A DNA stretch of 64,000 nt from Escherichia phage WPEC1: sequence record PV659873.1. One strand, 5' to 3'. This document shows positions 4,650-5,986 of the stretch, piece after piece. Position 1 is the stretch's first letter, and each line of letters opens with the position of its first letter. Under the pieces are notes generated by a model. It made no database searches. It had not been told where the DNA came from and saw nothing but the letters and a program-made list of their open reading frames with translations. Both the position numbers and the translations under genes were made by a program.

Positions 4650-5303
4650 CTATACCAGACTTTGTAGGTATTTGTCAAGGGCTTCTTGATCGCCTTGACA
4701 AACATAGCAACGGAAGTCTTGAGCCGAAGGTTGTTTATTTTCATCCCAGTCCCAATAAACATTACCCTTATAACGTGAACCAGGAAACTCAAAAGAGGCT
4801 GTATGTGTAATGTATCCTGGGCCACCAGTGAAATCACAGAATGAGAATTGGGGGTATGCCGCCTTTACTGCCTCAATAAACCAAGCTTTACGATCTAAAG
4901 CTTCATTGATGCTATACGCATGTCTCTCCATTTCTTCCCACGTTTTCCAGACACTTCTTTCATCAGGAGAAAAGACAAGCCATTCTGGAAGGTATAGAGT
5001 GTCATAGTAATCATCATATTCGATCTCGGAGGCGCACGAAGCTGACTCCTCCAGTTTTGAGTAATCAAAAGCAGAATATACCCACCAACCATCTTCCAGT
5101 AACGCTTTGATAGGGACGAAGCCTTTATCAGCATATTGATCGAATTGTTTGACACGGTGGCTTGTGCAGTCTTCAAACTCACATTCTAAACGATATGCAC
5201 CTTTTCGACGAGCCTCAAGACCGTGTGTACTGAAAATAACAACACTTCCTTCACCATCATTACGATCTACTTGATAAGCAACCACTGGTTTTGAATTTGA
5301 CAT
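4650..5303 (-). CDS. hypothetical protein
   Basis: 217-aa ORF; AAGGAGaaataATG. Confidence 0.55.
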   Translation of the reverse strand: MSNSKPVVAYQVDRNDGEGSVVIFSTHGLEARRKGAYRLECEFEDCTSHRVKQFDQYADKGFVPIKALLEDGWWVYSAFDYSKLEESASCASEIEYDDYYDTLYLPEWLVFSPDERSVWKTWEEMERHAYSINEALDRKAWFIEAVKAAYPQFSFCDFTGGPGYITHTASFEFPGSRYKGNVYWDWDENKQPSAQDFRCYVCQGDQEALDKYLQSLV

Positions 5304-5986
5304 TATTTCTCCTTATCTAGAAGATTGTTAGACAAAAACACTGCACGAGCAAAACCACGTGCGGTTAGTGATCTAAGTTGTTTTGTTTTTGCACTAGCTC
5401 CACCTAAGCTTTTCCAACCCCAGAAGCAGCCTATATGATCTACTGGTTTCTTCACTGGTTGAACAAAACCATTGCCGTGCCAAATACAAGTTTTCTTTGT
5501 ATACCCATCACGGGTAGGCATTTTAGGATGAAAGCTTCCTTCCTCTTCAAACAAATACCCACCATACTCATAAGGATCAAAGTAAAAATCGGGTTTACGC
5601 CATAAGGTTGAAAGTTTACCTACTGGGTTCTCAATCATCCAAGGAACATTATATTTGTTACCCAAAGCTTCCACTACACGAATATTAGCTAAAGCTTCAT
5701 CCAATTCCTCTGTGCTGCGTTCGTGTTTGCTACCACTACCTGCTAACATAGTGCAAGGTGGAAATCCAAAAATAATATCGGGTTTAGGTATTCCATGATC
5801 TTCAGGGTTGAATGTAGAATCTATCCAGGCATTCACATAGGTTATGTTTGGGTGCTCCATCCTAACCTCGTATTTACCGTGATCCCCTTCATCAGCGTTT
5901 ACACAAAAACACTTGTGACCTGCTTCGGCATAACGTAACACCATGATCCCAGATCCGTCAAACATAGACAAAACTGTTTTACTCAT
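5303..5986 (-). CDS. putative compact DNA (cytosine-5)-methyltransferase-like protein
   Basis: Motif I-like LSMFDGSGI, motif IV-like GFPPCTMLAG (PC dipeptide), motif VI-like MIENPVG in canonical order; start moved to ATG 5986 (GGAGGGG RBS). Confidence 0.5.
   Translation of the reverse strand: MSKTVLSMFDGSGIMVLRYAEAGHKCFCVNADEGDHGKYEVRMEHPNITYVNAWIDSTFNPEDHGIPKPDIIFGFPPCTMLAGSGSKHERSTEELDEALANIRVVEALGNKYNVPWMIENPVGKLSTLWRKPDFYFDPYEYGGYLFEEEGSFHPKMPTRDGYTKKTCIWHGNGFVQPVKKPVDHIGCFWGWKSLGGASAKTKQLRSLTARGFARAVFLSNNLLDKEK

Follow-up and report, generated by a model that had tools for sequence, protein, structure and literature searches.

Whether a protein of only 227 residues, with the signature motifs of cytosine-5 (C5) methyltransferases (MTases) and no obvious target-recognition domain (TRD), is a minimal DNA MTase or an enzyme that modifies free nucleotides is the question raised by one open reading frame (ORF) of Escherichia phage WPEC1 (sequence record PV659873.1). 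The gene lies on the minus strand of a 64,000-nucleotide stretch of this genome, which was analysed as a whole and is referred to below as the window. An initial annotation, made from the letters of the sequence, had left both possibilities open. Our analysis indicates that the ORF very probably encodes a stand-alone S-adenosylmethionine (SAM)-dependent DNA C5 MTase belonging to phrog_757, a large family of compact phage proteins. The ORF itself, its motifs, its family, the predicted fold, the homology to a characterised enzyme and the absence of partner genes are established, while the catalysis, role and specificity of the window protein are what we infer.

The three motifs that had drawn attention to this ORF, FDGSG, GFPPCTMLAG and IENPVG, do follow each other in canonical order in the 227-residue product, all within 123 residues (Table 1). 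An ordered F.G.G ... PC ... EN[VP] arrangement appeared in 28 of 200,000 composition-preserving shuffles (1.4e-4), and the MTase ORF is the only one of the 58 window ORFs of at least 120 amino acids (aa) to contain the triad. Motif I, kept as FDGSG in 112 of 123 close relatives, pairs with FAGIGG of Escherichia coli Dcm in hhalign and with FSGAGG of M.HaeIII in phmmer. In a diverse alignment of 87 members, 30-58% identical to the window protein, Cys78 of motif IV and both Glu119 and Pro121 of motif VI are invariant, and Asn120 is conserved to at least 90%. The 'PC catalytic dipeptide' of the initial annotation is present here (FPPC, with Cys78), but the proline before the cysteine is not a family feature among the close relatives: in the 123 sequences this position is taken by Asp (59), Ser (39) or Pro (17), with Gln also occurring, and the conserved core is FPxCT, in which the Pro at -2 is kept and the Pro at -1 varies. 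The same 87-member alignment has Tyr162, Lys164 and Thr166 invariant in the motif VIII-like YTKKT, which is basic, differs from the canonical QxRxR and is placed on the equivalent strand. Arg205, Ser206 and Gly211 of motif IX are at least 90% conserved, with RSLTPRG present in 109 of the 123 relatives. Towards the C terminus, Asn220 is invariant among close relatives, and the consensus of the diverse set reads ...AVFxAN. Column conservation is high at residues 71-90 (motif IV and the catalytic loop), 116-145 (motifs VI-VII), 156-175 (VIII) and 201-215 (IX), and lowest at residues 31-70 and 181-196.

The predicted structure points to the same class of enzymes. An AlphaFold2 model computed with 87 homologues reached a mean predicted local distance difference test score (pLDDT) of 87.1 and a predicted template modelling score of 0.87. 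Only residues 81-87, right after the catalytic cysteine, fall below a pLDDT of 50, as expected if they form a mobile active-site loop. When the model was compared with the PDB by Foldseek, the top 50 matches were all C5 DNA MTases (DNMT3B, 2.9e-8; M.HaeIII, 4.2e-6), and essentially the entire 227-aa protein is therefore predicted to be the catalytic (large) domain of a C5 MTase. The identity to the catalytic domains of DNMT3A and DNMT3B is only 14-19%; those domains have 270-290 aa, are parts of large multidomain proteins and form oligomers with DNMT3L, whereas the phage protein, some 60 residues shorter, lacks accessory domains. With M.HhaI, M.HaeIII and E. coli Dcm/M.EcoRII it shares the predicted fold and the motif order I, IV, VI, VIII-like, IX. 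Classical type II C5 MTases and the phage enzyme would have the Cys/Glu chemistry in common. Unlike them, the phage protein scores below the Pfam threshold, has no separate small (TRD) domain and retains only a vestige of motif X. The same compact fold is also seen as a domain in helicase-type proteins of uncultured phages (BFVD A0A6J5SE15, 1397 aa, and A0A6J5NPY6, 1126 aa; Foldseek E 1.6e-10 and 1.4e-9, 25-27% identity); in these large fused proteins the MTase is one domain, whereas that of the window is free-standing. Independent C5-MTase-like proteins of about 210-250 aa were noted in Tetraselmis virus 1, Lactococcus phage P087 and Halobacterium phage phiH.

A relative with published activity bears on the function. 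The BASEL phage KarlJaspers (Bas06, MZ501090) carries bas06_0055, a 711-bp gene annotated as "Dcm-like C5 cytosine methyltransferase", and its 236-aa product matches the window protein over the full length (50% identity, E 1e-71). The genome of phage K42 is 95.4% identical to that of Bas06, and its 711-bp dcm gene, the product of which is nearly identical to the KarlJaspers protein, was studied in connection with retron Ec86: all four phages that escaped Ec86 carried lesions within dcm or just upstream of it, expression of dcm alone triggered the retron, and the wild-type enzyme produced high 5-methylcytosine (5mC) on the retron's msDNA (multicopy single-stranded DNA), as measured by LC-MS (liquid chromatography coupled to mass spectrometry), while no high msDNA 5mC was seen with the C82A/E128A/K175A/K176A quadruple mutant or the empty vector (bioRxiv 10.1101/2023.08.16.553469). 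A later paper takes it as established that a phage cytosine methyltransferase is the trigger (PMC12916289). The four mutated residues of K42 Dcm align exactly with Cys78, Glu119, Lys164 and Lys165 of the window protein, and three of them, Cys78, Glu119 and Lys164, are invariant in the diverse alignment. The suggestion that this is a minimal DNA MTase is thus borne out by the fold, the ordered motifs and a 50%-identical family with published DNA 5mC activity. Family and architecture are shared by the two enzymes, and both are encoded by stand-alone genes in early or replication regions; the carrier phages differ, a T1-like Drexlerviridae siphovirus in the case of KarlJaspers/K42 and a 150-kb Stephanstirmvirinae myovirus in the case of the window. 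The two proteins also differ in the variable stretch that separates motif VIII from motif IX (VDHIGCFWGWKS against PKEDDKDNPGWAKT), and the specificity of the two enzymes may therefore differ as well.

The family to which both proteins belong is very common. The phrog_757 profile, described as "DNA methyltransferase", covers residues 1-225 of the window protein (profile positions 13-223 of 247; E 1.8e-84). By tblastn, matches were obtained in 1487 phage records, mainly Escherichia and Klebsiella phages and including Drexlerviridae, Vequintavirinae, Krischvirus (RB49-like) and the P1-like phage D6, whose 32%-identical protein is annotated 'DNA methyltransferase'. At the protein level 870 clusters at 90% identity match, with lengths of 210-267 aa among those listed, as do 1892 representatives at 50% clustering with E<=1e-3, nearly all of whose full-length matches have 200-260 aa. 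The window itself is of the Phapecoctavirus type (Escherichia phage BI-EHEC/ESCO13/phAPEC8; Stephanstirmvirinae, ~150 kb), and the MTase gene is 99-100% identical in BI-EHEC and about 60 other Phapecoctavirus genomes, in many of which GenBank labels it "DNA methyltransferase" or "Dcm". The latter name is a functional nickname rather than a statement of orthology. Orthology to E. coli Dcm was considered and ruled out: the hhalign comparison gave E 0.028 and a probability of 1.8% over motifs I-IV only, the lengths are 227 and 472 aa, and the TRD is absent.

How such a small protein would choose its target is the more difficult part of the question. The window protein lacks a target-recognition domain of its own kind between motif VIII and motif IX: the two are spaced by 43 residues here and by 43-46 in the 123 close relatives, compared with 126 in E. 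coli Dcm. This spacing, together with the fold matches and the motif order, upholds the description of a C5-MTase-like protein without an obvious target-recognition domain. What remains, residues 172-204, is modelled as coil and two short helices that pack against the catalytic domain (pLDDT 75-98). Within it, residues 181-196 are the least conserved part of the C-terminal half, and in relatives insertions of up to 16 columns follow residue 187. Because its position matches that of the TRD in canonical enzymes, this variable stretch is called here a putative "micro-TRD", and we infer that it sets the specificity. It is possible, if rather doubtful, that a compact enzyme with about 15 variable residues recognises a shorter or different motif, or a DNA structure such as a hairpin or single-stranded DNA, and not CCWGG. 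If that were true, the family would represent the smallest natural scaffold of a sequence-reading C5 DNA MTase, with its specificity swapped by a tiny loop.

The CCWGG specificity of K42 Dcm was assumed from that of the host Dcm and is backed only by the requirement for CCTGG in the msDNA (bioRxiv 10.1101/2023.08.16.553469). E. coli MG1655 encodes Dcm itself. In this dcm+ strain with an empty vector, msDNA 5mC was low and the retron silent, while the phage enzyme methylated the msDNA and was described as toxic (bioRxiv 10.1101/2023.08.16.553469). The phage enzyme therefore does something that the host Dcm does not, which suggests that the two differ in specificity, substrate form or activity. 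Searches of the literature for a specificity or methylome determined for the compact MTase family returned nothing beyond the Ec86 study. In the window, CCWGG occurs 59 times (zero-order expectation 55, Markov expectation 90) and CCSGG not at all (zero-order expectation 35); these counts are compatible with protection of CCWGG, are not diagnostic of it, and site frequencies in the window leave the specificity undecided.

By analogy with M.HhaI and DNMT3, SAM would be held at motif I (Phe9-Gly13) and by the acidic or polar residues that follow strands beta2 and beta3. The target cytosine would flip into the pocket, where Cys78 would attack C6 and Glu119 protonate N3; the methyl group of SAM would then pass to C5, and beta-elimination would free the enzyme. 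The DNA backbone is probably held by Lys164 and Lys165 of YTKKT and by the RSLTxRG helix, and the sequence may be read by the loop-helix segment of about 33 residues at 172-204 (about 15 of them variable, at 181-196) together with the active-site loop at 79-91. The enzyme would be expressed from an operon whose genes are small and non-structural. It would probably serve to methylate replicating phage DNA, such that the progeny could escape some of the type II restriction enzymes of the host. A side-effect is that retron Ec86/Eco1 can sense enzymes of this kind, a documented cost in relatives.

Several observations weigh against the assignment as a stand-alone DNA C5 MTase or against the role proposed for it. 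The Pfam profile PF00145 (DNA_methylase) gives the protein 11.6 bits against a cut-off of 22 bits (E 0.18) over the N-terminal 90 residues only, and E<=0.01 with this profile was reached, weakly, by just one of 87 diverse family members. The NCBIfam scan of the protein gave no match. Sequence searches of PDB chains with the protein and two family profiles yielded nothing below E 0.08 (range 0.08-0.7), and sequence alone connects the family to solved C5 MTases only marginally (E 0.08-0.16). Motif X (GN[AS]V) is reduced to the conserved Asn220 and is at best vestigial. The published 5mC activity belongs to the K42 homologue, not to a Phapecoctavirus orthologue. The profile search proposed by the initial annotation, which would have taken the lack of a hit as a sign against an MTase, thus came out divided, positive with PHROGs, below threshold with Pfam and empty with NCBIfam; a verdict from Pfam only would mislead, because the PHROGs match is so strong. 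As to the anti-restriction role, orphan phage MTases are classically enzymes of this type (EcoSal review, PMC12707154). On the other hand, the BASEL authors saw no simple link to restriction resistance for the methyltransferase genes that Drexlerviridae carry (PMC8594841), and the role is therefore unproven. The window sequence is moreover depleted of many restriction sites: there are 43 copies of GTAC where about 198 would be expected (z -11) and 3 of CTSAG where 46 would be, CTGCAG, GGATCC, CCATGG, CAGCTG and CGATCG do not occur at all (6-17 expected), and GGCC and CCGG reach about half of their expected counts, with GATC, AGCT, TGCA and GCGC at expectation. Such avoidance shows that methylation is not the phage's main defence.

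These last points, the missing correlation in BASEL and a phage sequence already purged of many sites, also speak for a different use of the same DNA C5 methylation, namely regulation of the host or phage genome, interference with a host process or defence that is sensitive to methylation, or a mark for packaging or replication. The gene moreover often adjoins those for helicase, primase or polymerase in other phages. We nevertheless consider such a role unlikely, given the classical function of orphan phage MTases (PMC12707154), and no regulatory partner is conserved and no sign of a regulatory function is seen in the sequence. Transfer of another group, for example carboxymethyl from carboxy-SAM (Cx-SAM), is highly improbable, as 8yf3 scores no better than ordinary MTases and LC-MS on the homologue found 5mC; the related idea of a catalytically dead DNA-binding protein has equally little to recommend it when all catalytic residues are invariant.

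The substrate deserves the same scrutiny. A Dnmt2-type enzyme that methylates cytosine-5 in RNA, with phage or host tRNAs as substrate, has very little probability, Dnmt2 being neither the closest structural nor the closest sequence neighbour of the window protein. To our knowledge, the known nucleotide-level C5 modifiers are enzymes of the thymidylate-synthase fold. No fold of this type was among the listed fold-search matches of the window protein, which argues against a modifier of free pyrimidine nucleotides (deoxycytidine mono- or triphosphate, dCMP/dCTP) that would act before incorporation, the alternative raised by the initial annotation. Its sole points in favour are that the protein is small and has no large DNA-recognition domain; the DNA-contacting motifs VIII and IX are conserved, the homologue methylates polymeric msDNA, and no dCTPase, kinase or other partner for pool conversion or nucleotide metabolism is conserved beside the gene. 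We therefore drop this alternative as exceedingly improbable, and return to the DNA C5 MTase and its genetic setting.

The MTase is surrounded by a run of small minus-strand genes and a scan for consensus signals suggests that it is part of a four-gene minus-strand unit (Table 1). The upstream 137-aa gene and the MTase start share 8 nt, and the MTase stop overlaps the ATG of the downstream 217-aa gene by one base (TAATG). In the ORF listing the MTase frame can run to a GTG at 6028, but homologues begin at the ATG. Terminator-like sites are more frequent in the consensus scan than expected (9 against 3.6), whereas the total of promoter-like sites is not above shuffle expectation. Besides the 217-aa protein, the unit encodes a second protein without assigned function, phrog_16551.

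Table 1. Features of the MTase locus in the window (position 1 is the first letter of the window; res, residues of the MTase).
Feature	Position	Strand	Remark
Compact C5 DNA methyltransferase coding sequence	5303..5986	minus	ATG at 5986, stop TAA 5305-5303, 227 aa
Motif I FDGSG, res 9-13	5948..5962	minus	predicted SAM-binding loop after strand beta1
Motif IV FPPCT, res 75-79, in GFPPCTMLAG 74-83	5750..5764	minus	catalytic Cys78 at nt 5753-5755
Motif VI ENPVG, res 119-123, in IENPVG 118-123	5618..5632	minus	ENV-type glutamate E119
Motif VIII-like YTKKT, res 162-166	5489..5503	minus	on beta strand; basic residues, putative DNA/cytosine contact
Residual target-recognition segment, res 172-204, 33 aa	5375..5473	minus	what remains after subtracting motifs
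Motif IX RSLTARGFARA, res 205-215	5342..5374	minus	resembles RRLTPRECARL of E. coli Dcm
C-terminal tail VFLSNNLLDKEK with N220	5303..5341	minus	possible truncated motif X
Shine-Dalgarno GGAGGGG	5995-5989	minus	2 nt before MTase ATG, within 3' end of upstream 137-aa gene; read from sequence
Candidate sigma-70 promoter TTGACA-17-TAAACT with TG	7348..7376	minus	consensus scan only; unit 7317 to 4650
Terminator-like hairpin matching that at 4610..4634	7382-7399		upstream of candidate promoter
DUF7277+DUF7275 protein, 313 aa (PF23942, PF23940; phrog_2141)	6376-7317	minus	first gene of apparent MTase operon
217-aa protein, phrog_8514, no Pfam match	4650-5303	minus	translationally coupled to MTase stop (TAATG)
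Intrinsic-terminator-like hairpin, 11-bp stem and T run	4610..4634	minus	closes unit after 217-aa gene
161-aa protein	4106-4591	minus	downstream, beyond unit
Sir2-family protein, 271 aa	3306-4121	minus	PF02146 E 1.9e-22, phrog_2162 E 2.8e-104; start overlaps end of 161-aa gene

The translational coupling led us to consider a split or multi-subunit MTase with a DNA-recognition partner. This possibility was rejected: no neighbour is conserved, and the K42 enzyme works alone. In six other phage loci of different lineages, none of the five window neighbours stands beside the MTase. A cognate restriction endonuclease was found neither near the MTase in well-annotated Phapecoctavirus records nor around the bacterial and prophage copies. 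With no endonuclease and no conserved partner, the window gene is therefore a stand-alone orphan MTase. In other phages the MTase is often located beside replication genes (helicase, primase, polymerase), and the bacterial copies sit in prophage replication modules, beside DnaB, RusA or a primase-polymerase. No second set of MTase motifs was seen in the 64-kb window. In Vequintavirus SYGMH1, KarlJaspers and Vibrio phage 1.285.O, the compact C5 MTase lies within a few kb of a second methyltransferase gene, of the adenine or another type, and of replication genes. Enterobacter phage vB_ExiM_F4M1E has a 654-nt gene after its MTase that has the same length as the 217-aa gene and shows no tblastn similarity to it at E<=1e-3. 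The phage-borne Sir2 protein downstream of the unit may bear on NAD+-based defence and counter-defence.

Some of the public records that contain the gene require comment. The closest one, BI-EHEC (OL505078, 1-16681), is over-annotated with tiny overlapping ORFs on both strands, and all its products, MTase and Sir2 included, are named "hypothetical protein". The gene is more than 99% nucleotide-identical to that of the E. coli Phapecoctavirus genomes in records of the same size labelled with other hosts, namely Campylobacter phage B15 (MG065650, 99.9%), Acinetobacter phage vB_AbaM_ABPW7 (OP562383, 99.9%) and Klebsiella phage ZCKP1 (MH252123, 99.4%), and the host labels of these three look doubtful, or else the host range is unusually wide. 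The Campylobacter-labelled MG065640, MG065666 and MG065661 contain protein-level homologues with 47-62% identity.

The gene as such is not new. Public genomes already list the identical protein as DNA methyltransferase or Dcm, and one member of the family has been characterised. As a discovery it therefore carries little weight, with the label present in many Phapecoctavirus records and a relative identified as the trigger of retron Ec86. A modest interest remains in the fact that recognition must work through a loop-sized TRD. Two further points concern annotation. The phage family is very common, with 1487 phage records and some 1900 clusters at 50% identity, yet Pfam and NCBIfam miss it, which is why many records, BI-EHEC among them, say hypothetical; and the name "Dcm" implies a CCWGG specificity beyond what measurements on the family support. 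With about 215-245 residues and a TRD of loop size, these proteins would make an attractive minimal scaffold for the engineering of C5 MTases. There is also a consequence for the phages themselves: the Phapecoctaviruses, which are of use in phage therapy and biocontrol, are predicted to carry 5mC, so that in some hosts retron Eco1 or 5mC-dependent restriction of the McrBC type may sense them.

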